From: a virus
Lineage: Duplodnaviria > Heunggongvirae > Uroviricota > Caudoviricetes
Length of the DNA: 64,000 nt
Reading direction: 5' to 3' (one strand)
Virus record (IMG/VR): IMGVR_UViG_2788500396_000001
Coordinates: 859 to 64,858 of that record
This document shows positions 16,534 through 47,189 of the stretch, one piece after another (the stretch's first letter is position 1; each line of letters opens with the position of its first letter). A model generated the notes under the pieces. It saw only the letters and a list, made by a program, of their open reading frames with translations. It was not told the origin of the DNA and made no database searches. Made by a program: the position numbers and the translations under genes.

Positions 16534-17718
16534 CGAATATAAAGACTTAAAGGCTTTGTATATCCGTTTCCATGCGATTTTTTGAGACCGATTTTTGAAA
16601 GAGATTCTTGCGTCGCGAATAATATCCTCATCGGTAATTTCTCCGGACGCCTTTTCGATATTGTAGAGTCTCCACATCGATCCGGACATATACAATCCCT
16701 TACTTGTCAAATCATAACACGTATCCGGGAAAACTTTTAGTTTGCCATTCAACGAACTAAGGTTTTGTCTGATCGTCGTTTCTTTGATCGTAGTTCCGTT
16801 GATTTCTTTCCAGCTCATATGTCTTTTTAAGAACTTATCAGATTGCTCAATTTCGAACATTGAATCCCCGGAAGAAAAGAGGTACCTTTGATATGCAACG
16901 AAAAATTTAATGAGACAATCTGGTATATCAACAACTCCAAAATAAGGAGTATTGATTTTATGATCTTCGATTGATACATCTGAGTCAAGCAAAAAAGGCA
17001 ACTCTTCCGTAGAAACTCCAAGCCATACCAGAACAGCACATATAATAGTCCGTGCATCAACAAGCCCATCAGCACGTGTTAAAATTTCGCAAAGTTCTTT
17101 AGGACCAGCAACAAGTTTCGATGCAATTGCTTTGCGAATATCCATATCGCTTGGTTTTAAAGAAAGCAGCTCAACTTTATACGGAACATACAGACCACTT
17201 TCAACACACCATTCAATATAGTGCTTAATAATAGGCAATACATTTTGCATTGTGCGGTAGTTAATTGTATTCCCACTGGATATCGCATCTACAAGCTCTT
17301 CTTTTGTCGCTTCGCAAATATCTTTTTTGTATTTGAGCTCGTAAACAGTCAGCAAATGGTTGAATGTTTTGTTGCATCTGCTTGCCATATATTTATGGCC
17401 GCTCTCTTCCAAAAACTTCTTTTTCCGCTCTACAAACGGAGTTGGATCAATGTCATCTGCATCTTTGAAGCAGGAGCATGCCTCTTGTGCCTGGATGCCC
17501 ATAGCAGGTGCCATAAATTCTGCGAGAGCAATCAACACTTTATTGGAAAATTTCCAGAGTGATTCTCCCTGCAGAATAGATGTTGCTTGCGCATTTGATA
17601 GCCCGATTTCATTCTTTACGTAGTCATACAGCTCGTTTCTAAAGTCAGCGCCACTCACAGCGATCATTTTTTCCATCTCGCTGATCATAGTGACTTGGCT
17701 ATACACAGCCACCAAGAG
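16528..17718 (-). CDS. hypothetical protein (about 396 aa)
   Basis: Long minus-strand ORF. The likely start is TTG/GTG with AAGGAGGTG 5-6 nt upstream (17718), but the ATG at 17688 is also possible. No confident domain assignment. Confidence 0.5.
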   Translation of the reverse strand, partial: LLVAVYSQVTMISEMEKMIAVSGADFRNELYDYVKNEIGLSNAQATSILQGESLWKFSNKVLIALAEFMAPAMGIQAQEACSCFKDADDIDPTPFVERKKKFLEESGHKYMASRCNKTFNHLLTVYELKYKKDICEATKEELVDAISSGNTINYRTMQNVLPIIKHYIEWCVESGLYVPYKVELLSLKPSDMDIRKAIASKLVAGPKELCEILTRADGLVDARTIICAVLVWLGVSTEELPFLLDSDVSIEDHKINTPYFGVVDIPDCLIKFFVAYQRYLFSSGDSMFEIEQSDKFLKRHMSWKEINGTTIKETTIRQNLSSLNGKLKVFPDTCYDLTSKGLYMSGSMWRLYNIEKASGEITDEDIIRDARISFKNRSQKIAWKRIYKAFKSLYSE

Positions 17719-17785
17719 ACACCTCCTTTTTTGATATACACATTGTAACACAAGTATTTCTGTGTGTCAACATGAATATCGTTTT

Positions 17786-33386: not shown

Positions 33387-33674
33387 TTATTTTTGACTTT
33401 CAATAACAGTAACGGTACCTTCAAACATCCCCCAAGCACTAGATTGCTCAAAAACATAAGTTTCTGCAAATTCATCAGCTCGCATAGGACGGGTTAAGTA
33501 CCACAGAGAATCATCCTTCCATGTAATCATTTCGAGCTTTTCACCAGGATCGAGTTCAACGACCATATCGCCGCCAAAATTCTTCACCATTTCCTGAGTA
33601 GTGCAACTAGTTAAAAATAGCGAAGCTACCAAAGCAATGCAAACAAACAAAATCAAAATTTTTTTATTCAGCAT
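33387..33674 (-). CDS. lipoprotein (signal peptide + lipobox LTSC)
   Basis: MLNKKILILFVCIALVASLFLTSC. Confidence 0.5.
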   Translation of the reverse strand: MLNKKILILFVCIALVASLFLTSCTTQEMVKNFGGDMVVELDPGEKLEMITWKDDSLWYLTRPMRADEFAETYVFEQSSAWGMFEGTVTVIESQK

Positions 33675-33692
33675 CTTATAATTGAACTCCTT

Positions 33693-34145
33693 TTATTGTT
33701 TTTGATAAATCACCACATCCAAATTATCAAGATATAGATGAATCAAATCAGATACAATTTCCCATTTTCCGTTCGCTAATCCGCACCCAATCCCGTGCGG
33801 TATTGCAATTGTTTTACTTTGGCATCGGTCTGCAATAGATCTTAGACATGTCTCAAAATGCGAATAGCTTGTATAGCATATATGATGGCAACGTCCATAA
33901 TTCAATTGAGCAAAAATATTCGCAACATATCTTCCATCTCCAATGGAGACGTACTGGACTTTCCCCATCAGATCATATGGCGTAGTAAACTTATTGCAGT
34001 ATTTGTGGTATTCTGTTTTCACAACAGGCCATTTAGTGTAAATAGCTTTAGCTAATCCGGAACCCATTACATTTTGACAGTTTACTTGCTGGACAATGAT
34101 GTCCTCATTAGAGTTTAAAATATCTCCCGTAATGTACCTAATCAT
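33693..34145 (-). CDS. macro-domain protein (ADP-ribose / Appr-1''-p processing family)
   Basis: MIRYITGDILNSNEDIIVQQVNCQNVMGSGLAKAI matches the macro-domain N-terminus. The ATG at 34145 has GGAGG 4 nt upstream. Confidence 0.65.
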   Translation of the reverse strand: MIRYITGDILNSNEDIIVQQVNCQNVMGSGLAKAIYTKWPVVKTEYHKYCNKFTTPYDLMGKVQYVSIGDGRYVANIFAQLNYGRCHHICYTSYSHFETCLRSIADRCQSKTIAIPHGIGCGLANGKWEIVSDLIHLYLDNLDVVIYQKQ

Positions 34146-34353
34146 CTTTCCTCCAAAGACCATCAAATGAATCATCGACACTATAGTTTTTCATACAGGT
34201 TGGGCACGTTAGATGCGATACCGCGCGACGAGATCTTCCTGTTTTAACTAAATGTCCATACTCAATTCTTGTTTCTTCTTCTATAAACCAGATCGGGATC
34301 AACGAATCTCCGCAGTATTCACACACACCGTAGCGATCACCATTACTCGCCAT
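34138..34353 (-). CDS. small zinc-ribbon protein
   Basis: CEYCG...CPTC, 71 aa. Confidence 0.4.
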   Translation of the reverse strand: MASNGDRYGVCEYCGDSLIPIWFIEEETRIEYGHLVKTGRSRRAVSHLTCPTCMKNYSVDDSFDGLWRKDD

Positions 34354-34759
34354 ATGTGATATAACGCCCCTCTCGTTCGGCTGCCGATATCATCTCGATC
34401 ACACGGCTAATGCCAAGCGACTCAATCTGCTCCTTCAGAAGGTAATCAATAGAATCCGGGTTCACTGATCTATCATCCCAATATTCATTTGCCCCGATTT
34501 TACGCGGGGAGTTACCAAACCCTTTCTTCCATTCATCCGTACTATCGTTAACAGCAGAGAAGTACAGACCATGTTCTGCGCACGCAGCAAGAGCATCGTC
34601 TAGAAGCTTTCCTTCCCGGCACGTCCAGAGAACCAAGTCCGCTCCATTGAGCTGTTCCTCCAGCGCCTTTTCGATAACACGCATCCTAGGCTCTCCAATC
34701 GAGGGGAACCTGTTCTCAAAAAGCGTTCCGTCAAAATCTATCGCAATAACCTTATTCAT
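34343..34759 (-). CDS. HAD-family phosphatase (small, DxDGT motif)
   Basis: IAIDFDGTL motif I, 138 aa. Confidence 0.5.
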   Translation of the reverse strand: MNKVIAIDFDGTLFENRFPSIGEPRMRVIEKALEEQLNGADLVLWTCREGKLLDDALAACAEHGLYFSAVNDSTDEWKKGFGNSPRKIGANEYWDDRSVNPDSIDYLLKEQIESLGISRVIEMISAAEREGRYITYGE

Positions 34760-34983
34760 TGATCATCCTCCGCTCCCATAATTGCTTCACATGCGGGGCA
34801 TCTTATGCTGTTTGCTGTCCAAATTCCCACCGGATACCCACAGTTCGTACAATTCCATATTGATTGACCAGTGGAACGAGATAAATCCAATTGAATCTCC
34901 CATTTTGCATGAATAACAGGAGCGTAAATCATCTTATTTGCGCCGCTTATTAGGACTAACAACAAAAGACCATTCATACACAT
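34756..34983 (-). CDS. small zinc-ribbon protein
   Basis: CTNCG...CPAC. Start likely at an internal ATG. Confidence 0.35.
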   Translation of the reverse strand: MCMNGLLLLVLISGANKMIYAPVIHAKWEIQLDLSRSTGQSIWNCTNCGYPVGIWTANSIRCPACEAIMGAEDDQ

Positions 34984-35632
34984 CGTCTACATACAGTAGA
35001 TCAGCCCAACACACCTTTCCACCATATTCACGACCCTTCTCGTGTGGGCACTTGCGTTTGTCATAAAAATCTTCTCCGCAAATAGAGCATTGAACTTTGT
35101 TGACTGCACAACCAACACTTATCTCTTTCTTGATCCCATTCTCAATTTCTTCAATCAGTGGTTTGGTATATTCAGATTTGACGATATACGCATATCCTTT
35201 TAGGTAACAGAGAGGGTCTCCAGCAACCGTAATGGTTGTTTCATCTGTTACTAATTCAGTCTTAAAAATGCGGGCATTTTGCCGTGATGTAATCCACTGA
35301 TGATCAAAGATTCCACTCATGCCGATAAACATAGAAGCCAATTCATTTAGCGTGTCTACGGGGAATCGTTCGCTGTCACGATCAATTTCGTTGTCACATA
35401 AGCGGATAGAGAAAACATACACTTCGTCCGCAGAAAGTGGACGATGGCTTATTTTGTTGATTAGATTCAGATTATCAGCACTAACTGCCTGTTCACTGGT
35501 TTCGGTTCCTGTACTTGCTTCCAAAAACTGAATTGCCTGTGTCACACAGTCAGAAAAAAATGCGCCAATCTTCTCGGTCAAAAAATCTGTGTTGCAAGAT
35601 CGTAGCCCATCGATAATTTCTTTTTTAGTCAT
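34934..35632 (-). CDS. hypothetical protein
   Basis: 232 aa, C-terminal Cys cluster. Confidence 0.45.
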   Translation of the reverse strand: MTKKEIIDGLRSCNTDFLTEKIGAFFSDCVTQAIQFLEASTGTETSEQAVSADNLNLINKISHRPLSADEVYVFSIRLCDNEIDRDSERFPVDTLNELASMFIGMSGIFDHQWITSRQNARIFKTELVTDETTITVAGDPLCYLKGYAYIVKSEYTKPLIEEIENGIKKEISVGCAVNKVQCSICGEDFYDKRKCPHEKGREYGGKVCWADLLYVDDVYEWSFVVSPNKRRK

Positions 35633-35773
35633 TGATCTTTCCTTTACAAACCCTTTATTTCTTCTTCCACTTATCGCAGCTGAAGCATGGCTTTAGCGAT
35701 ACACCAAGCATCGGACTGTTCTTATTGGTACATTTACCGTTCTGGCACCAAAAACAAGTTTCACATTTCTCCA

Positions 35774-36334
35774 TCAAATTCTCCTTGCAGAACCCTGTTT
35801 ATCTCCGCCATTCCATTTCCAATTATCTTTGGCTAAAGGGTTCTGATATTGAAAATACTCATGTTTGCATTCTTCACATGGGCCTTCGTTATGATTCGGA
35901 GTGTAGCTTTTACAAGCTGGACAATACCCATGTAGTTGCTGTATTGCGGCATCTCTTTCCTTCTTTACCTCCGCATTGCGACGCTTTTCCTCTTTAAGCA
36001 TCTGAGATAGCTCAGACACTTCGATGGCGAGTTCCATAGACTTAGCGGAATTTTCATCCAAGCGAATAGGGGAGAGACCACAATATAAAGCCTGATTTTC
36101 GTAATACAATTTAATGATTGCATCTGCACAATCAGCTGTCATTTTTGGGATGCATTTGTTCATATCGTTCCCGGAGTAATAGATGCACCCACTTTTACAC
36201 TTATCAATACCATGACTTTTCCCGCATAACGCAATTGATTCAGCTATCTTGATGTAATCCAAGCTCAGGCCTCCTCTGCCGGCATCTCGAACCAACGCAA
36301 TGCATATTCTTCGCTCGGCACCCCGTCTTCGCAC
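35774..36334 (-). CDS. coiled-coil Cys-cluster protein, copy 2 of duplicated cassette
   Basis: Paralog of 23602..24303 (ENQALY..., KERDAAIQQLHG). Confidence 0.5.
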   Translation of the reverse strand: MRRRGAERRICIALVRDAGRGGLSLDYIKIAESIALCGKSHGIDKCKSGCIYYSGNDMNKCIPKMTADCADAIIKLYYENQALYCGLSPIRLDENSAKSMELAIEVSELSQMLKEEKRRNAEVKKERDAAIQQLHGYCPACKSYTPNHNEGPCEECKHEYFQYQNPLAKDNWKWNGGDKQGSARRI

Positions 36335-36510
36335 AAATCAGCAATCATGTTAATGAGCCGTTTCGACATCTGAAGGTTATCCATACTACGAATAACATCC
36401 CCTCGTGACATAGGAACTGCACTATGACAAATGTCAGGTTTACACTTACACATATACTGAGGAGAACCGCTGTTACAACAGTCTTCATTATGTTCAAATT
36501 TACACTTCAT
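36265..36510 (-). CDS. small Cys-rich protein
   Basis: 81 aa with CCNSG...CKCKPDIC. Confidence 0.35.
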   Translation of the reverse strand: MKCKFEHNEDCCNSGSPQYMCKCKPDICHSAVPMSRGDVIRSMDNLQMSKRLINMIADLCEDGVPSEEYALRWFEMPAEEA

Positions 36511-37078
36511 GTCCTTGCTCCCGTCCTCTTCTCCAGATCGCCCAGGCTTCCTCTGTTAGCGGGCGGCCGCACTCACAACAAAACTTGTATTCCGGCTCAT
36601 AATTGCTATGATGCTTACATTCTCTACACACTTTTGGTATTGTTCTTGAACTTTCATTGTTATTTTTGCACCACGAACAGTTAGGCGCACATTCTCCGCA
36701 CGGCTCCCACGCCTCCCTGTCGATGTAGGCGGAATGGAAGGTGTATGCCGGACCAACTTGCTTGTACCAGTCGTTTGCACTGCATCTTTCCCCATCTGGA
36801 AACGTAAGTAGCGTAGCAAAAACATCTTTTGTGACCAAGGCCCAGCAATTCGTCTCTGGGAGGTATACTGGCCATCCGTCCATTTCGCACAGATGATCAA
36901 GAGGCAATGGCTTGATGTTCACCATATTCCGCAAAACCTTAGCGGCAATGCGACAAGCCTCTGTTACAGCCTCTTGAACGGCATCTTCGCCTCTGAACCC
37001 TGCATAGTATTCGATTTTATTTAGGGTATCGAGACTGGTTTCAGGGTCTAAAATATTTGCGGCATCTTCAAAATTCAT
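36500..37078 (-). CDS. Cys-rich protein, copy 2 of paralog pair (with 24456..25022)
   Basis: ILDPETSLDTLN, AYIDREAWEPCGECAPNCSWC and CCECGRPLTEEAW parallel 24456..25022. Confidence 0.55.
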   Translation of the reverse strand: MNFEDAANILDPETSLDTLNKIEYYAGFRGEDAVQEAVTEACRIAAKVLRNMVNIKPLPLDHLCEMDGWPVYLPETNCWALVTKDVFATLLTFPDGERCSANDWYKQVGPAYTFHSAYIDREAWEPCGECAPNCSWCKNNNESSRTIPKVCRECKHHSNYEPEYKFCCECGRPLTEEAWAIWRRGREQGHEV

Positions 37079-37373
37079 TCATCTTATCCCTTTCCCACGG
37101 AACGACAACACCTTCAATAAGTTTTTCTTCTCCGTAATTCCTAGTGGTAAAATCTAATTCGGAAGCATTTCCGGACAAACTAGTTATCGACACACAGATA
37201 ACATCATCCGGCAACTCAAATGTAATGTTCTTCATCGCGCTCCGAACCTCCAAAAAATCTCTGATGTTCACGAACTGCCTTCTTGTGGTATGGACAATTT
37301 GGATTTGCTCTGCACTTAAAGCACCATCCAATCTCGTATGCATCAGATCGGTTATAGCCTTCATCATAATCAC
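37068..37373 (-). CDS. hypothetical protein
   Basis: 101 aa. Tiles with neighbours. The overlapping 37216..37452 ORF is judged spurious. Confidence 0.4.
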   Translation of the reverse strand: MIMMKAITDLMHTRLDGALSAEQIQIVHTTRRQFVNIRDFLEVRSAMKNITFELPDDVICVSITSLSGNASELDFTTRNYGEEKLIEGVVVPWERDKMNEF

Positions 37374-37388
37374 AAATTCTATCTATAT

Positions 37389-37583
37389 TCATTGAGCCAT
37401 GCGCATCTCCTTCTGATATGCACGTAAATCTGGACACGTTCCATGTTTGCAAAATGGACGCTTACAGTTTGTGCAAAACTCTGCCGATGCCCGATCAATT
37501 CTCATTTTGTCTTCCTTAAAAGGGGAGAAACGGCCTGGCTTTGATGCTGCCTTATATAGTCCATATGGATTGCGTAATCTCAT
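37389..37583 (-). CDS. small Cys-rich protein
   Basis: 64 aa, CTNCKRPFCKHGTC. Confidence 0.35.
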   Translation of the reverse strand: MRLRNPYGLYKAASKPGRFSPFKEDKMRIDRASAEFCTNCKRPFCKHGTCPDLRAYQKEMRMAQ

Positions 37584-37599
37584 TAACTCATGCCTTCCA

Positions 37600-38481
37600 T
37601 CAAAAGATTAAGCTTGCTGGATCATCCCAAGCGCTATATAGCTTACAATCAGGGCGTAGGATTAGGTATTTGTAAGTATCTGTTGCTTCCTCACACTGTT
37701 TTTTACCCATACAGTCGTCATCAAGCACCACAGACATACCATCCACAGAATACTTTGTTGCTCCATACGGAAGCTTGCCAAGAGGATGCCCTACACGTTT
37801 TACATATTCAGAAATGGCTTGTGTTTTCTGAGGAGATAAGGTATGGTCATATACCCATTTGCCTTGCTCCGTATCAGATGAAGAAGCATAGAGAACTCGC
37901 AACGTCACTTGGTCTGCGCCAATGTCATAACATGTCGAGAACAACTCCTCTGGTGTATATGCCTCAAATGCGCTCGATAGATTGATGCTAAACCGCAAGG
38001 AGAAGTCATATTTTTTAATTTCCCGGCACAAATCATCCAACGAAAATTTAATAGGAGCAGGGCACCCGATGATTTCCATATTCTCATTATCATCAAAAGA
38101 AGAAATGGAGAGGCTGATGATATTTACCCCAACGTGATTTCTCAAAAACCGGAGATAGTTTTGATCTAAGAGCACGCCGGTGGTTTGCATCTCAATCCAC
38201 TGAAAAGGATTGGCCATCAGCTGCATAAACAACCCGAAGTAAGTTAAGAATTTTCTATTTTGTTGAGGCTCAGAATCTCCAGTTAACATCACAGTATTGC
38301 AACCATTGTCTTTTGCAAAACTCAGACGTTTTAAGTAATCTTTTACATACAGATCGAAGAATGGTAGGTTGTCATCCATCTGATTCTTGTATTGGTTTGC
38401 ACTCATTTTGCTTACACAAAATTTACAGGTGTTGATGCATTGCGGGTTAGGTACAACCACACTAAGACTTTGTGCTTTCAT
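37600..38481 (-). CDS. radical SAM enzyme (second copy; QueE/activase-like size)
   Basis: CINTCKFC (Cx3Cx2C) near the N-terminus. LTGDSEP GGE-like motif. Confidence 0.6.
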   Translation of the reverse strand: MKAQSLSVVVPNPQCINTCKFCVSKMSANQYKNQMDDNLPFFDLYVKDYLKRLSFAKDNGCNTVMLTGDSEPQQNRKFLTYFGLFMQLMANPFQWIEMQTTGVLLDQNYLRFLRNHVGVNIISLSISSFDDNENMEIIGCPAPIKFSLDDLCREIKKYDFSLRFSINLSSAFEAYTPEELFSTCYDIGADQVTLRVLYASSSDTEQGKWVYDHTLSPQKTQAISEYVKRVGHPLGKLPYGATKYSVDGMSVVLDDDCMGKKQCEEATDTYKYLILRPDCKLYSAWDDPASLIF

Positions 38482-38858
38482 TGGAGTGCCCCCTCAAAAT
38501 CTTCTTTTACAATGGTCCACGGAAGGTCTTGGTAGTGCTGACGCGACAAAAATCCGTACAGCGTATTTCGCTTCCATCCCATATACTCAGCACATTCTTT
38601 GGATGTTCCGAATACAACAACATTGCCCTCACGATCATAGATCGTATAAGAATTTTTGCATGTTGGCATACGAGTAGGAATCTCATTGTTCCTGATCAGC
38701 ATGTTGCGAATAGTATCAGGATCTGCTCCATATTCAGCAGCGATTTTCCTGAACGGAACACCTGCTCGATTCTTTTGGATGATCGCCTGCAACATCTTGG
38801 TAGTAAACACTCTGGTTTCTTTCATAACATACTCCTGTGCATCAAAAGCGTGTCGCAA
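38478..38858 (-). CDS. HTH DNA-binding protein with NUMOD/IENR-like C-terminal motif
   Basis: VPFRKIAAEYGADPDTIRNMLIR (resolvase-type HTH). VFGTSKECAEYMGWKRNTL. Confidence 0.45.
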   Translation of the reverse strand: MRHAFDAQEYVMKETRVFTTKMLQAIIQKNRAGVPFRKIAAEYGADPDTIRNMLIRNNEIPTRMPTCKNSYTIYDREGNVVVFGTSKECAEYMGWKRNTLYGFLSRQHYQDLPWTIVKEDFEGALQ

Positions 38859-38861
38859 AGT

Positions 38862-39263
38862 TTATAGGGGTGCATCACCAATCAACTTAAGATTGTTAAC
38901 AGCATCCCTATTTTCTGCAGTAATATAAAATGCAAACCAAGAGTTCACATAGGTTTTGGTTTCTGCGATTTCTTGGTTGATTTCCATTGTAGACTGGAGA
39001 ATAGAGACACGTTCGTATTCGCTGATCTCAGAATTCTCAACCGATAAAATATAGGTTTTATGGGCTGCTTCGTATTTTGCGACTTTGATGCTCACATCGT
39101 AGTTATCATAGTATGCTCCACAAGCACCACCAAAACATGCAACTAATACAAGAGAAATAATTGCTTTAATTACATTTTTCTTTGCATAATTGTCCGGAGC
39201 AAGCACAAAAATCAACGCAGGAATACATCCAGCCAGTGCTCCAAATAAAAGTCCGATATACAT
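38862..39263 (-). CDS. membrane protein (2 TM)
   Basis: The ATG at 39263 has AAGGAGG 7 nt upstream. Hydrophobic N-terminus. Confidence 0.5.
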   Translation of the reverse strand: MYIGLLFGALAGCIPALIFVLAPDNYAKKNVIKAIISLVLVACFGGACGAYYDNYDVSIKVAKYEAAHKTYILSVENSEISEYERVSILQSTMEINQEIAETKTYVNSWFAFYITAENRDAVNNLKLIGDAPL

Positions 39264-39275
39264 CAATTATCCTCC

Positions 39276-39509
39276 TTATAAAATCCTGATTTTATTGTCG
39301 TTGTTATCAAGAATAGCCTGCAACCGATCTGCGATCCCAAACAATTGTTCACTCCTTAAATATAAAAAAGGAGCTAATGATGTTTCAGAGGCATATCCAG
39401 TGCATCCACAGTTGTATTTGTATTCCGTAGCTTCAAATTGATATCTTTCGGCAACTTCTTTTAATGCGGAAATAATCCAAGCAACCTCTGTTCTTGTAAA
39501 CTGTTGCAT
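39276..39509 (-). CDS. hypothetical protein
   Basis: 77-aa ORF. Confidence 0.4.
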   Translation of the reverse strand: MQQFTRTEVAWIISALKEVAERYQFEATEYKYNCGCTGYASETSLAPFLYLRSEQLFGIADRLQAILDNNDNKIRIL

Positions 39510-39556
39510 ACAATCACCCCAATCTAAATATGTATCCCCGCATAGCGGGGAAGGGG

Positions 39557-39928
39557 TTAATCAAGCTCAGCAAGCAGAGCGGTCAGTTCATCAATAGACT
39601 TGTTCTGGAGCGCCTGGTCCTGCTTTTCAGCGATGATTTCACGAATCTTACGCTTCTGCTCAGCCTTAGCCTTTGCGTTCTTTCGATCAGCCGCTTCCTT
39701 CTGCTTCACCTGTACGATATGCCGGATAATCGCAATCTTCGTAGAAGTCTCAACATCCTCATTAGTCGGAGTGTCGAGAAGGCTCTCTTCATTAGACTGC
39801 TTCTCCTGAGCATTCAGCCCCTTGAAAATAGAATCAAGGGCAGTCACACTCAGATCCCACAGATCCTCGACTCCAATCATTCCCTTTTGACACTCCCCAT
39901 GGCTAAAGCCAGGGGATTCTTGGCTCAT
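39557..39928 (-). CDS. hypothetical protein (start codon abuts IS end)
   Basis: 123 aa. No SD in the IS-derived sequence immediately upstream. Confidence 0.4.
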   Translation of the reverse strand: MSQESPGFSHGECQKGMIGVEDLWDLSVTALDSIFKGLNAQEKQSNEESLLDTPTNEDVETSTKIAIIRHIVQVKQKEAADRKNAKAKAEQKRKIREIIAEKQDQALQNKSIDELTALLAELD

Positions 39929-41224
39929 CGAGGACAGCCTAAGTACCCTGCAGTTGCCCGCAGAACACCGAGGTCTTACACCCTCTCCTCAAGCGTTGGG
40001 TAGGTTCCGGTGTGTCCCACCGTACCTTGAATACTTGATTCTTTAGGCGCTGGCCTGTAGCAGCCGCAAACCCTCCATCAGCAGATTCTGGGCGGCGTTT
40101 TGATCCCGGTCGTGGTGGGTTCCGCACTGCGGGCAGGTCCACTCGCGCACCGCAAGATCTTTGACCTCTGGGTTTTGGTACCCACATCGGCTGCATAGCT
40201 GGCTGCTGGAGAAGAAGGTTCCCACTTCTACCAGCATTTTGTGCTGCCAGGCGGCCTTGTACTTGAGCTGACGGGCCAACTCACCCCAAGAGGCATCGGC
40301 GATGGCCTTGGCCAGCTTGTGGTTCTTGAGCATGTCTCCTACATTGAGGCTCTCCACACAGATGATGTCGTAGTCCCTTACCAACTGGGTAGTGAGCTTG
40401 TGCAGGTAGTCCTGCCGGCAGTTGGCGATGCGCTCATGCTGCTTGGCCAGGCGGAGGCGGGCCTTCTCCCGGTTGCGGCTGCCCTTTGGCTTTCGAGACA
40501 GCCGCCGCTGGAGGGTGGCGAGCTTCTTCTCCGCCTTCTGCAGATACTTTGGGTTGTCGAACTTCTGCCCATCTGAGGTGATCACCAAATCCTTGATACC
40601 GACATCCAGCCCTACGGCGGCGCCAGTGCTGGGATACTGGGATATCTCCACCCCGGTGCAGCAGAGGCTCACGAAAAACTTGCCACTGTGGCTCATGCTC
40701 ACGGTGGCGTTGAGAATCCGTCCCTGTACCGGGGTGGAGACCTTGGCCTTTACCCACCCCAGCTTGGGCAGTTTCACCGCCCGGTCGCTGGCCTGAATGT
40801 TTTGTCCAACAACCTTGCTGGTGTAGCTGGCCTTGCTGTGGTGTTTAGCCTTGAATTTGGGGAAGCCCACCTTTCGCCTGCCCTTGCGGCCGGCGAAGAA
40901 GTTCTTGTATGCCTGGTCCATGTGGAGTACGGAGGTCTGCAGGGCTGTGGAGTCAACCTCCCGCAGCCAAGGGTAGGTATCCTTCAGTCCGGGCAGCAGC
41001 TTCACGCAGTCGTGGCCGCTGATGGGGCTGCCGGCAGAATAGGCCGTCTTCCGGGCCGCCAAGGTCTGGTTATAGACGAAGCGGCTGCAGCCGGTGGTCT
41101 TACGGATGAGCTCTTCCTGCTTTGCTGTGGGGTACAACCGGAACTTGTAGGCTTTCTCCATGAGCGGAACCGCCTTTCTTGCGTGGATTTGGATGTTATG
41201 ATATGTTGCATGTAAAAACGCCCC
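39929..41224 (-). mobile_element. IS200/IS605-family element carrying tnpB only (IS1341-like), about 60% GC, with the predicted omegaRNA region at the RE (about 39929-40100)
   Basis: Abrupt GC shift. tnpB is flanked by about 60-nt LE and about 114-nt RE non-coding ends. Inserted directly after the integrase stop codon and before the 39928 gene start. Boundaries approximate. Confidence 0.6.
40043..41161 (-). CDS. tnpB: TnpB (OrfB) RNA-guided RuvC-like nuclease of IS605 family
   Basis: N-terminal [34 protein letters not shown]. RuvC-I D (GLDVGIKDL). RuvC-II E (VCVESLNVG). Zinc finger CSRCG...CPQCG. Ruv[15 protein letters not shown]. Confidence 0.9.
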
Positions 41225-42046
41225 TTATCGCGTATCGTTTTTTATATCGGTGAGCGCTTCTATACCTAAATTCATCCAAAGGTATACGGTTTTATCAAAC
41301 TTGTCTTGGAGATCGATATACCTAGCAGTAATCGATGGATTAGAATGCCCCAGCATACCTCTAACCCTTTCAATTGAGGCTGCTTCCATTTTTAACGAAT
41401 CGGGGAGAGGACGGCCAGTTAAGTATCCGGCCGCAGCGCGAGCTCCAGTTTTTCTCATTGAGTGCGTAGAAAACCTTCTGTTTTCTCTCCACAATCCAAC
41501 CCTCTTTGTTGCAGACCGAATAGCCCCACTTACAAGCTGTTCCGTGATTGGTTGCGAGCGAAGCACTATATTGCCATCAGAGATTGCTGTTTGAAATCGC
41601 TTTCTTGGCCCTTGACTTGTGAACATATAGTCCATATAGCACACATCTCCAATACTATCTCTATACAAAGAGATCGCAAGTTTAATGGCATCGTTCACAT
41701 AGATGTGTCTCAGATTTCTGTTTTTCTTTTCAATCTTACTAATTTCATCTTTGATATTCCCGTTCTGATCGAGCACATCCTTCCATCGGAACTCCAACAG
41801 ATCTCCAATTCGTAATTGTGTGTTACAACCCATCACGAACAAACACATGTCGCGCATTGATTTATTGGCGAGCTCAGTTACAACCATATTCACTTCGTCT
41901 TCACTGTCAAACGGAAGTACCTTTTTTGACCTCTTTTCAATCAATTCAGCAACTTGGAAGGTATCTTCTGTGTCTAGTGTATCACATTTTATATAGGTTG
42001 TAAAGCCTTTTTTGGTGTAATCTTCAAAATCTATGACCGCGTTCAT
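41225..42046 (-). CDS. int: tyrosine recombinase / phage-type integrase
   Basis: C-terminal catalytic residues R (RIGDLLEF), HSMRKTGA, LGHSNPSITARY (R-H-R-Y). RBS AAGGGGTGG. Starts 12 nt after the mazF stop. Confidence 0.75.
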   Translation of the reverse strand: MNAVIDFEDYTKKGFTTYIKCDTLDTEDTFQVAELIEKRSKKVLPFDSEDEVNMVVTELANKSMRDMCLFVMGCNTQLRIGDLLEFRWKDVLDQNGNIKDEISKIEKKNRNLRHIYVNDAIKLAISLYRDSIGDVCYMDYMFTSQGPRKRFQTAISDGNIVLRSQPITEQLVSGAIRSATKRVGLWRENRRFSTHSMRKTGARAAAGYLTGRPLPDSLKMEAASIERVRGMLGHSNPSITARYIDLQDKFDKTVYLWMNLGIEALTDIKNDTR

Positions 42047-42058
42047 ATCACCACCCCT

Positions 42059-42391
42059 TTATAGTGCAAAGCTGACGTGCAAAGCACGGTTAACATCATC
42101 CATCTCTTTCTCGCTGAGGGAACACAGCTTTTGAATGAGACGAGTTTTGTCTAAAGTACGAACCTGCTCAAGTAGAATGGTTGAATTTCTAGGAAGCCCA
42201 TCACGATGCTTGATGTTGATGTGGGTTGGTAGAGGTTTCTTCGTGTTTTTAGACGTAATCGCTGCGGCAATCACAGTTGGACTATATGTATTGCCGATAT
42301 CATTCTGAACAACAAGAACAGGGCGAATACCGCCCTGTTCACAACCAACTACAGGATTAAGATCTGCGAGGTAGATTTCACCTCTGGTCAT
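42059..42391 (-). CDS. mazF: MazF/PemK/EndoA-family mRNA interferase toxin
   Basis: RGEIYLADLNPVVGCEQGGIRPVLVVQNDIGN...KPLPTHINI...ILLEQVRTLDK is near-collinear with B. subtilis EndoA. Start taken at ATG 42391. Confidence 0.8.
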   Translation of the reverse strand: MTRGEIYLADLNPVVGCEQGGIRPVLVVQNDIGNTYSPTVIAAAITSKNTKKPLPTHINIKHRDGLPRNSTILLEQVRTLDKTRLIQKLCSLSEKEMDDVNRALHVSFAL

Positions 42392-42398
42392 GTTATAA

Positions 42399-42635
42399 TC
42401 ATCTTCTCCTTCCACTAACAGAGTGCATTGCCATTCTCTGTAATTTTTTGTATTCTTCGTCGCTTAGCACCGGTCCTTTCTTTTTCTGTTCCTCAATTTC
42501 CGCTAACCGCTTATTTGCAAGTGCCGACACTTCTTTCCATTCCTTACGTTGTCTTGATCTTTCGTTGATCGTGATAGATGCATCAGCCGCGCTTTTCAAA
42601 ATAAAAGCTACAATAATTAAATAAAGTATCCACAT
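42399..42635 (-). CDS. small membrane-anchored charged protein (candidate non-canonical antitoxin)
   Basis: The N-terminus WILYLIIVAFILKSAADA is hydrophobic and the C-terminal half is Lys/Glu-rich. The stop overlaps the mazF start region. RBS GGAGGA. Confidence 0.45.
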   Translation of the reverse strand: MWILYLIIVAFILKSAADASITINERSRQRKEWKEVSALANKRLAEIEEQKKKGPVLSDEEYKKLQRMAMHSVSGRRR

Positions 42636-42651
42636 ATAAATCCTCCAAATT

Positions 42652-42690
42652 TTAATGGTTATGATACTAATTAAATTATATCAAAAATTG
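42652..42690 (-). promoter_or_regulatory. sigma70-like promoter (TTAGAC-18-TGaTATAAT) driving 42399..42635-mazF-int
   Basis: Read on the minus strand: ttagacaaatccttcaatttttgaTATAAT, followed by GGAGGAtttatATG. Confidence 0.5.
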
Positions 42691-42734
42691 AAGGATTTGT
42701 CTAATATTTTAACAAAAAATCAACACCTTTCTTG

Positions 42735-43025
42735 TTATGAATTTGCGTAAGGTGAAATATTTTCGTACACCCATCCAACACCTTTGCTATGATGGGCGTC
42801 CACCCAATAAAACCAGTCATCTTGCGTAAATTCACCAACTGGGAACCCTCTCCAAGGCTGGTCTAACACTAATTCACCGCTGGTATCTTCCACAAATGCG
42901 ATATCCGTAATTTCTTTCCAAAGATTTTCAACTACTGTATCGGTGACATCGAATTCCGGGTTAGCAAAAATGCGATTAGGACAATTCCAGCAATCACAAG
43001 ATTGACACGTAAAACATGGGCTCAT
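42735..43025 (-). CDS. hypothetical protein
   Basis: 96 aa with an N-terminal Cys cluster. RBS GAGAGGTGA. Confidence 0.45.
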   Translation of the reverse strand: MSPCFTCQSCDCWNCPNRIFANPEFDVTDTVVENLWKEITDIAFVEDTSGELVLDQPWRGFPVGEFTQDDWFYWVDAHHSKGVGWVYENISPYANS

Positions 43026-43041
43026 TATATATCACCTCTCG

Positions 43042-43344
43042 CTATACACAGGATGCAATTGCTGCACACACATCATCTTCAGAAAGATCATAAGAAGTGA
43101 AGTTACGAAGATGCTCAACAATCAAATCCTTTGCTTCTATAATTTCTTCTCGGCTACAAGAAAATTCATCATAAATTTCTTGTATACTCCAAGAATCAAT
43201 ACGCAGCATAACCTCCATCCAAAGCTGATCATCTACCATTTTATCAAACAGCAGAGCCGCAACCCGAGGCGGAATTTCAGTATGATTTTCACCGCATTCA
43301 ATATGCCAATATCCATTTTGATCAACATAAATATGATTTTTCAT
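43042..43344 (-). CDS. hypothetical protein
   Basis: 100 aa. ATGA overlap with the upstream gene. Confidence 0.45.
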   Translation of the reverse strand: MKNHIYVDQNGYWHIECGENHTEIPPRVAALLFDKMVDDQLWMEVMLRIDSWSIQEIYDEFSCSREEIIEAKDLIVEHLRNFTSYDLSEDDVCAAIASCV

Positions 43345-44312
43345 GCCACAACTCCTTTCGGCTCATGAATTTTCTTTAAGGTGTCCTGCCAAACACTTTC
43401 ACACATTCCATAAACACTTCCGATACTGTAACCAGGGCCAGCACCATCAGGCACAGCTCGCCAAATAAACTTTGCCGGAATGCGGACATCGTGCTCAAGT
43501 TGAATGTCTAGAACGCTGCCACCGCCACACCAAGGATCGTATAGTCCGCATGGAGTAGACTTATCTAAAACAATATATCCACAATACGGATTTTTTCTAG
43601 CATCATAAAAATGCCCATTGCGATCCTGCAGTCGAACTAATTTGTTAATCTCTGCGAGCTGACGCACAGTCATTCTGACCATAAAGGTTAGCGTTGCCAT
43701 ATGAGACGGGAGGTTGGCTTCCTCTACATAAATACTTTTAAGAAGGGGAGAGGATTCACCTTCTGCGTCTCGCTTGAATGTATTGAGTAGCCGACTCTTC
43801 TTGTAGCCCTGCTGCTTCACAAGCCATACAATGGATGACAGATCGTCAATGGTTTGATTCTGTTCGTTTCCATAATAGCAAGGATAGTGAGGATTGAGAA
43901 CGAAATCATAATTTCCGTCCCCGGTGTCTAACATAATATCTACACATACATCTTGGTTCCAATAGTGATCATAAGGAGGGGAGATCAGCAAGTAATCTCT
44001 AACAATCTCCCACAAAGAACCATCCTCAATATCAACATCGGGGTAGTGATCAAACATATATGTCTGGAATGCGGATCTGATATTGTCCTCTTCATACCAA
44101 ACAGCTTCCATATATGCCTCATCCAGAAGCTCATACATAGCCATTTCTGGATCATCACTCTCGACGATTGTTGCAATCTGTTTCTCAGAAAGACAATCAT
44201 CGTAATTTGCGTAGAGCTCAAAGGAGTAAGTCCCATCTGCGTTTCGCTGGAACGGATAAGTATAGTCCTCCAAAAATTCAGTTGCAATCTTTTTCTTTTC
44301 TTCAAGTGTCAT
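43341..44312 (-). CDS. hypothetical protein (323 aa)
   Basis: Long clean ORF, no recognised motif. Confidence 0.5.
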   Translation of the reverse strand: MTLEEKKKIATEFLEDYTYPFQRNADGTYSFELYANYDDCLSEKQIATIVESDDPEMAMYELLDEAYMEAVWYEEDNIRSAFQTYMFDHYPDVDIEDGSLWEIVRDYLLISPPYDHYWNQDVCVDIMLDTGDGNYDFVLNPHYPCYYGNEQNQTIDDLSSIVWLVKQQGYKKSRLLNTFKRDAEGESSPLLKSIYVEEANLPSHMATLTFMVRMTVRQLAEINKLVRLQDRNGHFYDARKNPYCGYIVLDKSTPCGLYDPWCGGGSVLDIQLEHDVRIPAKFIWRAVPDGAGPGYSIGSVYGMCESVWQDTLKKIHEPKGVVA

Positions 44313-44535
44313 ATGTATCGCTCCTCGATAAACTAATTCTTATGAGGGTTAGTCAGACAAAACCCATCATGGCAAAATCCAGTAACGTCTGAGAGATAGT
44401 CTGATATTTCATCTACATCTTCCATTCCGTCCGGGATATGGATTGTTTTTGGAAGGAATAGTGCATCATCTTCACAGCCAACATCCCACAATATATTGTA
44501 TGCATCCATTAAATCACCTCATTAAAATGCGTATT

Positions 44536-44790
44536 TTAAAGTAAAATATTTACTTCGTTTTCTGCCCAACGGAACTTCTTAGTCCAGTCCTCAGTGGCTG
44601 TGTTTTCGTACACATATGCATTTGCCGAACGATCTGTTTCATCAACCTCAATAAACGCCAAGTCAATTTCAACCCCATCATTACGTCTTAAACAAACGGA
44701 AATTGCGGGGTATTCGCTACTAGAGCAAGCACGAACACAAAGATTTCCTATGCTTGTCTTAAGGCTGATGTCATATTCTTGATCACCCAT
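44536..44790 (-). CDS. hypothetical small protein
   Basis: 84-aa ORF, ATG start. Confidence 0.4.
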   Translation of the reverse strand: MGDQEYDISLKTSIGNLCVRACSSSEYPAISVCLRRNDGVEIDLAFIEVDETDRSANAYVYENTATEDWTKKFRWAENEVNILL

Positions 44791-44794
44791 AACC

Positions 44795-45076
44795 CTATGC
44801 CACCTTTCTCTTCACAATCTCCCAAGTATAGATAGTGTCGTTGCAAAATCCAATTCCCATCTTACCAAGGGAGGCATACGTATTGCCTTCGTCACACATA
44901 TCTTCATCCCATTCCCAGTCCGGCCAAATAGACTTAAACTCCTCGATCACTCGATCTCGTTCTTTAATCATATCAGTATGAGCCATGTCAAAGTGTTCTT
45001 CTCCATACACACCGATCACATCCAGTGTTTCAACATCAGGTGTATCACAATGATGTACCAAAACATAAACTACCAT
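44795..45076 (-). CDS. hypothetical small protein
   Basis: 93-aa ORF. Confidence 0.4.
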   Translation of the reverse strand: MVVYVLVHHCDTPDVETLDVIGVYGEEHFDMAHTDMIKERDRVIEEFKSIWPDWEWDEDMCDEGNTYASLGKMGIGFCNDTIYTWEIVKRKVA

Positions 45077-45411
45077 TCTTTATGCACCAACTTTCTCATA
45101 GCTTCAGCCAAATCATCAAGCATGCTTTTGATTTCTTCTGCATCCTCAACCAATTCTCGAATGGATGACGGGATACCATTTTGCCCACGGCCCCCAATCC
45201 ATAGTTCGACGTGCTCGTCCACATCAAAACTATCCGCATAATTTATGATAGAACCAACAACATACGAAGGATCATCATTAGTTGGTATGGAAAAGATAAA
45301 ATCTTCTCCTGCGGGAGAATATGTTTCAAACTCATACTCCCCATCAATAATGCTCACACCCCATCCTTGCGCCTCTGCAATCTCAACGATTTTCATGTCC
45401 GTACTTTTCAT
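45070..45411 (-). CDS. hypothetical small acidic protein
   Basis: The ATG at 45411 has AGAGGGG 7 nt upstream. Confidence 0.4.
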   Translation of the reverse strand: MKSTDMKIVEIAEAQGWGVSIIDGEYEFETYSPAGEDFIFSIPTNDDPSYVVGSIINYADSFDVDEHVELWIGGRGQNGIPSSIRELVEDAEEIKSMLDDLAEAMRKLVHKEW

Positions 45412-45580
45412 TAACGATCCCCTCTTCATCACAAACTAATGTAACGATAATGCCACGAAGACAAAACTTCCATTGATTGATCGCCGGGTTCACATACCAC
45501 TCCACTTCATGATCCACATTCTTGTAGTGACAGTCGTAATATGCCGTAAGCTTCTTATCATAAAAAGATTCTTTCCTCAT
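45383..45580 (-). CDS. hypothetical small protein
   Basis: Only the C-terminal 65 aa (from MRKESFYDKK) looks protein-like. Tiles with 45585..45878. Confidence 0.35.
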   Translation of the reverse strand: MRKESFYDKKLTAYYDCHYKNVDHEVEWYVNPAINQWKFCLRGIIVTLVCDEEGIVNEKYGHENR

Positions 45581-45584
45581 AACA

Positions 45585-45878
45585 CTAAACCTCCATATGA
45601 TCAACAATATTGAGATACGTAATATTCTCGTGCTGAGCGAAAAACTGGCCAAGAGCTTCGTGCATATTGATTGCATCGATGAAACAGTAATAGCGCTCAT
45701 CTCCAACATCGAACACAACCTCAAATCGGCCTAGCTCTTCGATTGAAGTACCATCATCCTCTCGATTGAGATCGGCCATATGTTCTTCGTCGTACATGAT
45801 TCTCCAGTCCTTCATTTTTTCTCCTTTATGAAAATTCCCGAGGAACAACCACTCCATAATTTTGTCGTAAAGTTGCAA
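45585..45878 (-). CDS. hypothetical small protein
   Basis: 97-aa ORF. Confidence 0.4.
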   Translation of the reverse strand: MQLYDKIMEWLFLGNFHKGEKMKDWRIMYDEEHMADLNREDDGTSIEELGRFEVVFDVGDERYYCFIDAINMHEALGQFFAQHENITYLNIVDHMEV

Positions 45879-46047
45879 TTACAGCCTTTTTGCTATAATA
45901 TAAAAACCGATAGTCTTGGTAACATCGAGCTCTGGTATCATAACATACAGCTTCATACCATCCGCAATCCTTATTGAGAAAAATAAGAGTCATGTGCTTT
46001 CCCTGGCTCACACTAAACCACCTTCCACGAATACATTCTGTCTGCAT
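45826..46047 (-). CDS. hypothetical small protein
   Basis: 73-aa ORF. Confidence 0.3.
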   Translation of the reverse strand: MQTECIRGRWFSVSQGKHMTLIFLNKDCGWYEAVCYDTRARCYQDYRFLYYSKKAVIATLRQNYGVVVPREFS

Positions 46048-46300
46048 ATGTCATTCTATTTCTGACAAATACATTGTTCCCAAGTGCTTGCATAGTTCTT
46101 AGAAGCGGGGCGTATTCACGCGGAGATACATATTGGCTATCAAAATAGTCTCTCATTGGCCTCTCGTCAAATCCGGTTTCACTAAAAACCATAATATTCC
46201 CGTACTGCACAGGATGTCTTAACAAAAAGCCAACAACTTGACCATCAAGCTTTTTAAAAATTACCGGGACCTGATCTGGCTTAGTTCTCCGCCTTCCCAC
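46013..46300 (-). CDS. hypothetical small protein
   Basis: 95-aa ORF. Confidence 0.35.
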   Translation of the reverse strand: MGRRRTKPDQVPVIFKKLDGQVVGFLLRHPVQYGNIMVFSETGFDERPMRDYFDSQYVSPREYAPLLRTMQALGNNVFVRNRMTYADRMYSWKVV

Positions 46301-47189
46301 AGTTCATCAACATCCTTTCAAAGTCTCCGGATTTTACTTTATTGAAGCCAACTCGATACGCGATATCGGTTCTATCGTTGTTTTCTACGCGATTCGTATA
46401 TCTGTACTCGTGGATGATGTGATTGTCATCATCAACAAGATATTTGATCGGTATGATTGAACAATTCATCATTCTGGTATCAGTAGGGAGGGGGAGCTCA
46501 TCCCATTCTTGGCGAGAAATATAATAGCAATCCTTCTTGTAAGTAAAGACTACATACGTCTTGCCGGAATCGCCTATGCTGCCTTCAAACTCAACGCCAT
46601 GATACGTAGAGAGCCATGCAAAGTATTCTGCATCAGTTTTGAAAGCGACCCCATCTCCAACATATCGATAACCAAACTCGTCAGGCTTGCTTAGATGATG
46701 CACACAATGCCGTTCCCAATCCTTGGTTGTGTATTCTCCATATTTAAGATCCGGAGAAATATATTCCCATACACTTACTTCTGCCTGAAAATCGATTGCT
46801 CCATCTGCGCACGGACCGCAATGTCCCCAATCGCAGAAATACTTAAGTTCTTTTCCAACATATCGAAGATCAGAAGATTTATAAAATCCCCAAGCCCCGC
46901 CGCTTGTCGTAAAATGCAGTGCATCATCTGCGACATAAACAAACGGAATGTAGGGAGATTCACAAATATGTAATTCACCTTTGGCATCAGATTCAATGTG
47001 GGCATGAGGGTAATACTCGCTCCATTTGTTGGTCAGGCGCACTACATCACCGGCCATAGGACTGTCCTTTCTGCTGGATTCAATGTATTTAATCAGAGCG
47101 TTGATATGGTCAACATCATCCTGAGTAATTCGAAAGTGTGCCCGCACAAACCGATGGTTAATATCGGACAGTGATTCGATGGTATACAT
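46281..47189 (-). CDS. hypothetical protein (302 aa)
   Basis: Long ORF, Cys/His-rich. Confidence 0.5.
   Translation of the reverse strand: MYTIESLSDINHRFVRAHFRITQDDVDHINALIKYIESSRKDSPMAGDVVRLTNKWSEYYPHAHIESDAKGELHICESPYIPFVYVADDALHFTTSGGAWGFYKSSDLRYVGKELKYFCDWGHCGPCADGAIDFQAEVSVWEYISPDLKYGEYTTKDWERHCVHHLSKPDEFGYRYVGDGVAFKTDAEYFAWLSTYHGVEFEGSIGDSGKTYVVFTYKKDCYYISRQEWDELPLPTDTRMMNCSIIPIKYLVDDDNHIIHEYRYTNRVENNDRTDIAYRVGFNKVKSGDFERMLMNCGKAEN

Follow-up and report, generated by a model that had tools for sequence, protein, structure and literature searches.

A truncated and probably immobile tnpB element with a predicted omegaRNA and guide substituting for 2,352 bp of a phage genome

The stretch of DNA analysed here (the window; 64,000 nucleotides, positions 859 to 64,858 of the IMG/VR record IMGVR_UViG_2788500396_000001) belongs to a large phage of the Caudoviricetes, whose genes are mostly on the minus strand and include those for ribonucleotide reductase, RNA ligase/polynucleotide kinase, a CCA-adding enzyme, ThyA, DHFR and dUTPase. 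Downstream of the integrase gene of this phage, and reaching into the next open reading frame (ORF), lies a GC-rich tnpB element of the IS200/IS605 family of insertion sequences (IS). An earlier note, made from the sequence alone, had placed this element at 39929..41224. By comparison with L015, a syntenic Logan phage contig of 122 kb, and with full-length copies of the element (1,443 bp, L016 and others) we could define it as 39887..41186 on the minus strand, i.e. 1,300 bp, with an uncertainty of 2 nt at the left junction (up to 41188). The sequences of the two junctions are ACATCCAAATCCACGCAAGAAAGG and GGGGAGTGTCAAAAGGGAATGAT. Around the left end (LE) and the right end (RE) of the element the following features are found:

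39557..39886, minus strand: remnant of a gene of 128 amino acids (aa), phrog_2018; codons 20-128 plus stop, the native first 19 codons and the Shine-Dalgarno sequence are gone
39867..39886, minus strand: predicted omegaRNA guide, AAGGGAATGATTGGAGTCGA; first 20 nt of the phage flank past the RE
39887..39890, minus strand: cleavage-site motif TCAA of the RE
39887..40030, minus strand: predicted omegaRNA scaffold, six helices between 40026 and 39894
39887..40042, minus strand: complete RE, 156 nt, ending ...GGGGAGTGTCAA at 39887
39926..39928, minus strand: ATG of a chimeric ORF, within the omegaRNA scaffold, between the helix arms 39930-39934 and 39919-39923
40043..41161, minus strand: tnpB, 372 aa, intact ORF
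41162..41186, minus strand: LE remnant, 25 nt, CCACGCAAGAAAGGCGGTTCCGCTC, from alignments with L016, L017 and L018
41187..41224, minus strand: phage backbone, identical to L015 3668..3705; 13-nt spacer after the integrase stop and start of an ORF
41209..41211, minus strand: ATG of this truncated 81-aa ORF; first 8 codons MQHIITSK; the ORF continues in L015 and is a called gene in L013

The tnpB gene encodes a protein which matches the Pfam families PF12323 (HTH_OrfB_IS605), PF01385 (OrfB_IS605) and PF07282 (Cas12f1-like_TNB), reaches 505.8 bits against the NCBIfam model NF038281 (IS200_TnpB, cut-off 425) and aligns over the full length with the sequence of the solved structure of ISDra2 TnpB (E 7.5e-106). 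In this comparison the RuvC residues D186, E270 and D353 line up with D191, E278 and D361 of ISDra2 TnpB, and the CxxC...CxxC zinc finger (C323, C326, C343 and C346) is aligned as well. Thus, the assignment to a tnpB-only element of the IS200/IS605 family and the intact reading frame with its catalytic triad and zinc finger, as described in the earlier note, are borne out. The same applies to the base composition, as the GC content of the element is 0.589 versus 0.432 in the remaining window and stays between 0.55 and 0.63 across the element in 200-nt windows, and to the missing Y1 transposase TnpA, which is encoded neither in the element nor, judged by PF01797, among the 88 window ORFs of 105-230 aa. 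The full-length relatives of the element are likewise devoid of TnpA.

Close relatives of the window TnpB (89-97% aa identity) are found on long contigs and in metagenome-assembled genomes (MAGs) of Clostridia and Oscillospiraceae. The protein is 97% identical to P0121, and such copies sit in ordinary full-length elements; the exact TnpB protein is not on record, and neither is its 77-aa neighbour. The nearest copies (L016, L019 and L054) reside in DNA of 54-58% GC. The element would therefore seem to stem from gut Clostridia of roughly 55-58% GC, which fits a recent transfer into a phage of 43% GC. In the earlier note an active RNA-guided nuclease on a phage genome was called notable, yet a TnpB on a phage is nothing special in itself, as by tblastn relatives of this TnpB, at most 51% identical, are detected in 404 GenBank phage records.

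Downstream of tnpB all relatives (11/11) are alignable with the window up to ...GAATCCCCTGGCTTTAGCCATGGGGAGTGTCAA (GTCAA) and diverge right after. In the window this motif ends at 39887, and homology to L015 resumes at the next base. The RE is therefore longer than the approximately 114 nt of the earlier note and runs 42 nt into the ORF 39557..39928. It contains a subterminal imperfect hairpin, CCCCTGGCT-TTAG-CCATGGGG (39894..39916), which is followed by AGTGTCAA and the end of the element.

The left end is strongly reduced. The conserved sequence of L016, L017, L018 and L053 covers the 167 nt in front of the tnpB start codon, begins CGAA.GCGCCGTAAAACCC after TTAT and comprises an imperfect hairpin (CCCTCGGAT..ATCCGTAGGG in L016, CCCCTGGAT..ATCCACGGGG in L017). 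Of these 167 nt, 140 are missing in the window together with the hairpin, which serves transposase recognition, and the TTAT target motif, and the remnant retains just the Shine-Dalgarno-like AAAGGCGG as ribosome-binding site (RBS) upstream of tnpB. Correspondingly, the LE starts in L016 and L017 have z-scores of -2.9 and -3.4 in DNA folding, versus +0.73 for the spacer between integrase and tnpB in the window, which forms no hairpin. The LE of about 60 nt described in the earlier note in fact consists of 38 nt of phage backbone and the 25-nt remnant. The earlier note had also held that a lack of IS605-type hairpins at the ends would speak against its reading; this lack is seen at the left end, whereas the right end has its subterminal hairpin. 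Neither a second copy of the element nor an LE fragment was found elsewhere in the window, and nothing there matches positions 1..140 of the L016 element. In summary of the family traits, the protein domains, the catalytic residues, the right end and the insertion next to a tetranucleotide are those of IS200/IS605 elements; a complete left end and TnpA are absent. We therefore address the window copy as a truncated derivative of the tnpB-only (IS1341-like, non-autonomous) group and not as a complete member. As the LE hairpin and the cleavage site are gone, TnpA mobility is lost, and a TnpA enzyme should be able neither to excise nor to move this copy.

The comparison with L015 by blastn also showed what the element replaces. 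The window positions 44325..41187 align with L015 569..3705 (92% identity) and 39886..34925 with L015 6058..10990 (89%), the homology breaking off at 41187 and starting again at 39886, and the interval 41188..39887 aligns with positions 141..1443 of the full-length copy in L016 (96%). Hence 1,300 bp in the window (39887..41186) stand for 2,352 bp in L015 (3706..6057). The missing DNA comprises most of the 81-aa ORF, the whole of a 679-aa gene (phrog_1735, DUF8224) and codons 1-19 of the 128-aa gene. The gene order in L015 is 78 aa, MazF, integrase (273 aa), 679 aa DUF8224, 128 aa, 84, 133, 115 and radical SAM, and the window is collinear with it except for the 679-aa gene, which is present nowhere else in the window.

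A homology search with the downstream ORF 39557..39928 retrieved 205 proteins of about 123-131 aa covering 85-94% of the query. The homologues share a conserved N-terminus, for example METMNIFEIATRNKYRFSY followed by KGMIGVEDLWDL (KGMIGVEDLW), and the window protein reads MSQESPGFSHGECQ followed by KGMIGVEDLWDL. Its first 14 codons are non-homologous to the family and equal the scaffold sequence of the RE, and the native 19 N-terminal residues, among them F, E, A, K and R at nearly invariant sites, are lost. The ORF is, from these alignments, a transposon-phage chimera, and the ATG at 39928, taken as the native gene start in the earlier note, is transposon sequence within the omegaRNA scaffold. 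In an independent gene call on an identical Logan contig the internal ATG at 39880 was chosen instead (107 aa).

The order integrase, (81 aa), 679 aa, 128 aa is common to L013 and L015. The 679-aa and 128-aa genes are adjacent in L013 (426-2869), in L015 (3944-6387) and in the Bacillus phage Emiliahah (L061, gp213/gp214), and tblastn matches of the 679-aa protein are found in 523 GenBank phage records, including phages of Salmonella, Klebsiella and Caulobacter. As the 128-aa gene of the window is without the conserved N-terminus and the pair is ancestral in distant phages, the state of the window is the derived one, i.e. a deletion; for the same reasons we rejected the reverse possibility that the relatives have gained the 679-aa gene. 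The loss of the pair implies that it is dispensable in this lineage. The pair is kept from phages of gut Clostridia to the Bacillus Tsarbombavirus with 57% aa identity, and the copies of the 679-aa protein that were searched gave no PADLOC, Pfam or NCBIfam match.

These results bear directly on the model of the earlier note, according to which a complete IS with an LE of 60 nt and an RE of 114 nt is inserted precisely into the intergenic region between the integrase stop and the next ATG. At first sight the ORF map fits this model, as the GC-rich block fills the space between the integrase stop at 41225 and the ATG at 39928. However, 41187..41224 is phage DNA, 140 nt of the LE are absent along with the hairpin, the RE extends to 39887 as judged from 11/11 relatives, the ORF starts with 14 codons of scaffold sequence where the homologues have a different, conserved N-terminus, and 2,352 bp that the syntenic relative possesses are not present. 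The original insertion site was probably within the coding sequence of the 128-aa gene. We consider the intergenic model as next to impossible. The earlier note was thus right about the family and wrong about the anatomy and the mode of insertion, its observation being partly confirmed and its interpretation partly supported.

The comparison with uninserted relatives, which the earlier note had proposed for finding the ends and the target tetranucleotide, was run on L015 and L013 and gave the ends 39887 and 41186 and the tetranucleotide TTAT. The empty site in both relatives reads TCTTAT|AAGGGAATG, and the window reads RE-TCAA|AAGGGAATG. TTAT is also found immediately 5′ of the LE in L016, L017, L018 and L053 and at the equivalent position of L022 and of the mini-element L051, with a variable base at position -5; by chance TTAT would be expected at a given position in less than 1% of cases at this base composition. 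For the window itself the TTAT insertion is visible from the RE side and from the TTAT of the relatives, the original left side being deleted.

The earlier note had further expected an omegaRNA encoded on the minus strand of the RE with a guide derived from the flank. A structured RNA in this place is confirmed by covariation and by a covariance-model search. The RNAalifold consensus for the RE of 11 family members has 41 pairs in six helices; 97.9% of the cells are paired, versus 36-50% when the partners are slid by 1-3 columns, and compensatory changes occur in 19 pairs versus 7.5 ± 1.8 in shuffles. The covariance model has a single match in the window (39887..40030, 159.9 bits, the window sequence being part of the training set). 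It also matches immediately 3′ of tnpB at 40 loci outside the training set, with TnpB proteins of 34-68% identity, in which 36 of the 41 pairs covary and 95.3% of the cells are paired in an alignment that was fitted to the model. The single-sequence minimum free energy of the RE RNA is no better than that of shuffles (z = -0.5), so that the support stems from covariation and not from the folding energy. A scan of 39400..41400 against Rfam (E <= 1) returned no family. Altogether, an omegaRNA scaffold in the RE on the minus strand is strongly supported by the comparative sequence evidence.

The predicted guide adjoins the 3′ end of the scaffold. Identical sequences, each preceded by TTAT, are present in L015 (6058..) and L013 (2541..), and the flank matches L015 perfectly over at least 60 nt. 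In the window the guide has its sole perfect 16-mer match at its own locus, where it is preceded by GTCAA and not by TTAT. The expected target of the ribonucleoprotein would be TTAT followed by AAGGGAATGATTGGAG..., which is the uninterrupted allele of the related phages, and the phage's own copy is predicted to be protected because TCAA stands in place of TTAT. An occupied allele without the target-adjacent motif (TAM) and empty alleles of relatives flanked by the TAM conform to the standard logic of TnpB; that occupied sites are immune and empty ones cleavable has been established for ISDra2 and for the Geobacillus elements, one of them with TTTAT as TAM (PMC10055086).

The left junction gives a hint how the present state could have arisen. 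It shows a 2-nt microhomology (AT): the phage sequence reads ...CCAAAT, the LE of L016 ...CCAT|CCACGC and the window CCAAAT|CCACGC. TnpA is unlikely to have caused the deletion, as neither breakpoint resembles TTAT| or TCAA| and only the AT microhomology is present. In L015 the positions 3706-3714 directly past the left breakpoint read ATTATCGAA, which equals the TAM (TTAT) and the first four bases of the LE (CGAA). The 8-mer TTATCGAA at this place is native phage coding sequence, and L013 (about 187-195) has TTATCGTA. The 8-mer was considered as a recombination site and is treated as chance, since recombination via the 8-mer would have kept the LE. In addition, a 69-aa ORF (41002-41211, minus strand) runs across this junction with the 8 codons of the cut 81-aa phage ORF and then out of frame through what is left of the LE and into tnpB, which makes it a trap for annotation.

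We suggest the following history. Judged from the structure of the ends, a TnpA acting in trans would have inserted the full element 3′ of TTAT in the 128-aa gene, between its codons 19 and 20 (TCT TAT | AAG GGA). An illegitimate deletion at the AT microhomology would then have removed about 2.49 kb, namely the 2,352 bp of phage DNA and 140 nt of the LE; the comparison shows the loss, and the mechanism is what we infer from the junction. By this deletion the LE remnant including the tnpB RBS would have been joined to the phage DNA 38 nt past the end of the integrase gene. Insertion followed by deletion is the simplest history, and another order of the two steps or a single event would be compatible as well. 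The junction expected for the intermediate or for a second copy is ...CGCTTCTCTTAT joined to the full LE CGAA.GCGCC. Searches for the predicted intermediate (TCTTAT plus full LE) gave 3 metagenome and 7 viral matches, all with unrelated flanks; as TTAT was part of the patterns, these matches are not counted as evidence for TTAT.

With TnpA mobility lost, the remaining potential of the copy is that of its nuclease. Since the LE is gone, restorative homing is irrelevant for the window copy. The tnpB ORF, the RBS, the omegaRNA scaffold and the guide are all intact, so that the cassette appears to be complete for the predicted nuclease function. The most likely activity would be a TnpA-independent 'non-restorative' homing or the cleavage of co-infecting relatives. 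'Transposon non-restorative homing' to co-infected phages or plasmids is listed, as theory, in a 2026 review, according to which it is TnpA-independent on plasmids (PMC13565253). Taken together, we regard it as probable that the element is a 5′-truncated, immobilised copy of a 1.44-kb non-autonomous, ISDra2-related tnpB-only element of the IS200/IS605 family which arose by insertion and deletion and whose predicted activity is homing or the cleavage of competitors.

Several points weigh against this explanation. TTAT is a putative TAM that was deduced from the insertion sites. Homing into a wild-type genome must bridge 2.35 kb of heterology on one side. The pN/pS of tnpB relative to the L016 copy is 0.13, and this selection may predate the transfer; the intactness of the ORF could likewise stem solely from the event being recent. 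Only one phage background carries the insertion, and neither the intermediate (full LE and 679-aa gene) nor a second background is found in IMG/VR and the JGI metagenomes. Finally, the locus is covered by two Logan contigs, L052 and L060 (SRR5344363), which are 100% identical to the window positions 47046..40466 and 40480..33600 and overlap by 15 nt only (40466-40480, in tnpB), so that no independent contig covers the whole element.

The latter point leads to the question whether the locus is an assembly artefact, in which two IS copies or a mixed population were collapsed and the 679-aa gene was dropped, or phage flanks were misjoined to a bacterial IS. IS elements are classic collapse points, and the break of the Logan contigs within tnpB suggests related IS copies elsewhere in the SRR5344363 metagenome. 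On the other hand, each junction is contained in an independent contig of 100% identity that spans it and continues 594-721 nt into the element unbroken, and the right-hand contig is found in 3 samples. An identical second copy should break the contigs at the IS boundary and not inside the element. Moreover, the RE junction is located exactly at the TTAT site, as in a genuine insertion, and the junction at the truncated LE would still demand a real illegitimate event. We consider an artefact as quite improbable.

The neighbouring genes are relevant for the question whether tnpB is expressed. Upstream of the element the following features are found:

41225..42046, minus strand: tyrosine recombinase (integrase), 273 aa, Pfam Phage_integrase, phrog_216; directly upstream of the element
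42059..42415, minus strand: MazF/PemK-like toxin, Pfam PemK_toxin (E 3e-35), in the integrase operon
42675..42703, minus strand: best sigma-70-like promoter match, TAGACA-17-TATAAT with TG, 11/12 positions; a consensus match only

The promoter match is located upstream of the unit formed by the 78-aa ORF, mazF, the integrase gene and possibly tnpB. As there is no terminator-like site on the minus strand between the integrase gene and tnpB, tnpB is probably read through from the integrase operon and co-transcribed with mazF and the integrase gene. A promoter scan of the full LE of L016 gave nothing.

A competing view of the same data is that the cassette is an idle, hitch-hiking remnant on its way to decay, and that the event matters biologically only in that the 679-aa and 128-aa genes were lost. 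Being already deprived of its LE the element can be seen as decaying, its own upstream region is replaced, no spread to other phage backgrounds was seen, and the 96% nucleotide identity to a bacterial/MAG copy suggests a recent arrival. However, and without this proving a function, all that a nuclease would require is undamaged, namely the ORF with its catalytic triad, the RBS, the complete scaffold and the guide; the deletion halts 25 nt before the tnpB ATG and thus spares the RBS, and the interval between integrase gene and tnpB is without a terminator. We take this view seriously, with a likelihood somewhat short of even. A more far-reaching proposal than the truncated, immobile copy favoured here is that the cassette acts as a free-standing RNA-guided homing or exclusion nuclease, which is expressed with mazF and the integrase gene and cuts the intact TTAT plus AAGGGAATGATTGGAG allele of a widely conserved gene in co-infecting relatives. 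From the sequence features this is conceivable, but we rate it as rather unlikely. If true, the relatives would be converted to the insertion/deletion genotype or eliminated; this would be a natural TnpA-independent 'non-restorative' TnpB homing between viruses and a possible step towards domestication as a weapon in phage competition.

A different kind of domestication would be a TnpB that no longer acts as a nuclease, for example an RNA-guided repressor of the TldR type that acts on the truncated gene downstream or on genes of the host. RNA-guided transcription factors derived from TnpB are known (PMC10705468), and the cassette, being immobile, is part of a phage operon. On the other hand, the RuvC triad and the zinc finger are intact, the protein has full length and is 97% identical to TnpB proteins of ordinary full-length elements, and as guide it has the original flank and no re-targeted sequence. 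Thus, a repressor function appears very improbable.

Among the known systems ISDra2 of Deinococcus radiodurans, whose TnpB and omegaRNA are structurally characterized (PDB 8BF8, 8EXA and 8H1J), belongs to the same family and shares the full-length protein architecture, the triad and the zinc finger. The guide RNA of ISDra2 is likewise encoded in the RE, overlapping the region 3′ of tnpB, with a guide that corresponds to the DNA flanking the RE. The systems differ in the target motif, which is TTGAT for ISDra2 and TTAT here. Furthermore, ISDra2 has tnpA, whereas the family of the window element is tnpB-only, the window copy is without the LE, and its scaffold matches no Rfam family. The element inserted in the window resembles IS608 with its 'peel and paste' transposition in the insertion 3′ of a specific tetranucleotide without target duplication and in the imperfect, subterminal hairpins at both ends of the full-length relatives. 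TCAA is also the right cleavage site of IS608. However, IS608 uses TTAC as target and is autonomous (tnpA and tnpB), and the window copy has no intact LE.

A further parallel is ISGst2 of Geobacillus stearothermophilus, whose TnpB2 uses the TAM TTTAT (Meers et al., PMC10055086), a motif that contains the TTAT seen here. There, TnpB cuts the transposon-free allele (TAM plus flank), recombination restores or copies the element, and the RE end replacing the TAM protects the occupied site. The difference is that homing of ISGst2 offsets excision by TnpA in a bacterial chromosome, whereas here only non-restorative homing to other phage genomes, or their killing, could apply. The arrangement is also reminiscent of free-standing homing endonuclease genes of phages, such as SegB/SegF and mobE (localized marker exclusion) of T4, in that a nuclease gene without mobility machinery lies between conserved phage genes, that the predicted target is the allele of the relatives, the own allele being immune, and that the window also encodes a Sak-type annealing protein. 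In contrast to the recognition by protein in the T4 systems, recognition would be RNA-guided here, and searches of IMG/VR and the JGI metagenomes for the junctions gave no evidence of co-conversion or spread; L052 and L060, which carry the cassette, are 100% identical to the window. Large phage genomes with tnpB are known as well, for example Geobacillus virus E3, the Bacillus phages SPG24 and phiNIT1 and phages of Clostridioides, Helicobacter and Campylobacter, all with TnpB proteins that differ from the window TnpB in being at most 51% identical to it.

As phage-borne tnpB genes are ordinary as a class, the value of this locus is that of a well-defined natural case in an immobilised state. 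The annotation is corrected in two points: what looks like a gene downstream is a chimera, and the phage has lost a 679-aa gene with matches in 523 phage records. For a TnpB subfamily of gut Clostridia about 50% identical to ISDra2 TnpB, the ends, the TTAT motif and an omegaRNA supported by covariation are now defined. In addition, the locus would provide a natural set-up for TnpA-independent homing or competitor cleavage, as one genome carries the predicted nuclease, its guide and a protected self-allele, and sequenced relatives carry the TAM-flanked target.

Searches for further occurrences gave little. The pattern of the RE junction has 0 matches in IMG/VR and the JGI metagenomes, megablast of 38000..43500 against GenBank phages gave no match, and a search of IMG/VR based on the integrase yielded no relatives. 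Within the wider clade, the terminal motif of the RE, GAATCCC..GGGAGTGTCAA, occurs in 73 IMG/VR stretches (L062-L134) with 76 copies, 48 of them with tnpB just upstream (34-68% aa identity) and 28 without. By regular expression no LE was detected next to these 76 viral RE copies, the LEs there being different. Identical 20-nt flanks, i.e. guides, recur across viral contigs of the metagenome 3300045988 (e.g. TGAAAGGAAAACTGCGCAAT, six times), and therefore the same sites are occupied in related phages. The mini-element in L051 (IMGVR_UViG_3300049724_000011, minus strand, about 8810-8835) has a length of about 50 nt and consists of an LE start fused to an RE end with a single hairpin at TTAT|CGAAGAAGCGCCGTAAAACCCCTGGATTTATCCGTGGGGAGGATGTCAA; in appearance it is close to a palindrome-associated transposable element (PATE) derived from the IS family of the window element.

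Some observations concern the remaining window. The GC-rich stretches at 5-6 kb and 53-56 kb were considered as further mobile elements and ruled out, as they are genes for thymidylate synthase, DHFR, DUF932 and LPD34. The 78-aa ORF (42399-42635, minus strand) overlaps the start of mazF in the position of an antitoxin and has no significant family match apart from a weak, sub-threshold match to REV. A second recombinase-like gene (16528-17751, minus strand, 407 aa) has an MrpR N-terminal core-binding domain and belongs to phrog_5830 (integrase). Among the window ORFs of 105-230 aa, HNH_3 and NUMOD1 domains are found, which are classical signatures of free-standing homing endonucleases, as well as a Sak single-strand annealing protein, a Macro domain protein and a cell-wall hydrolase.

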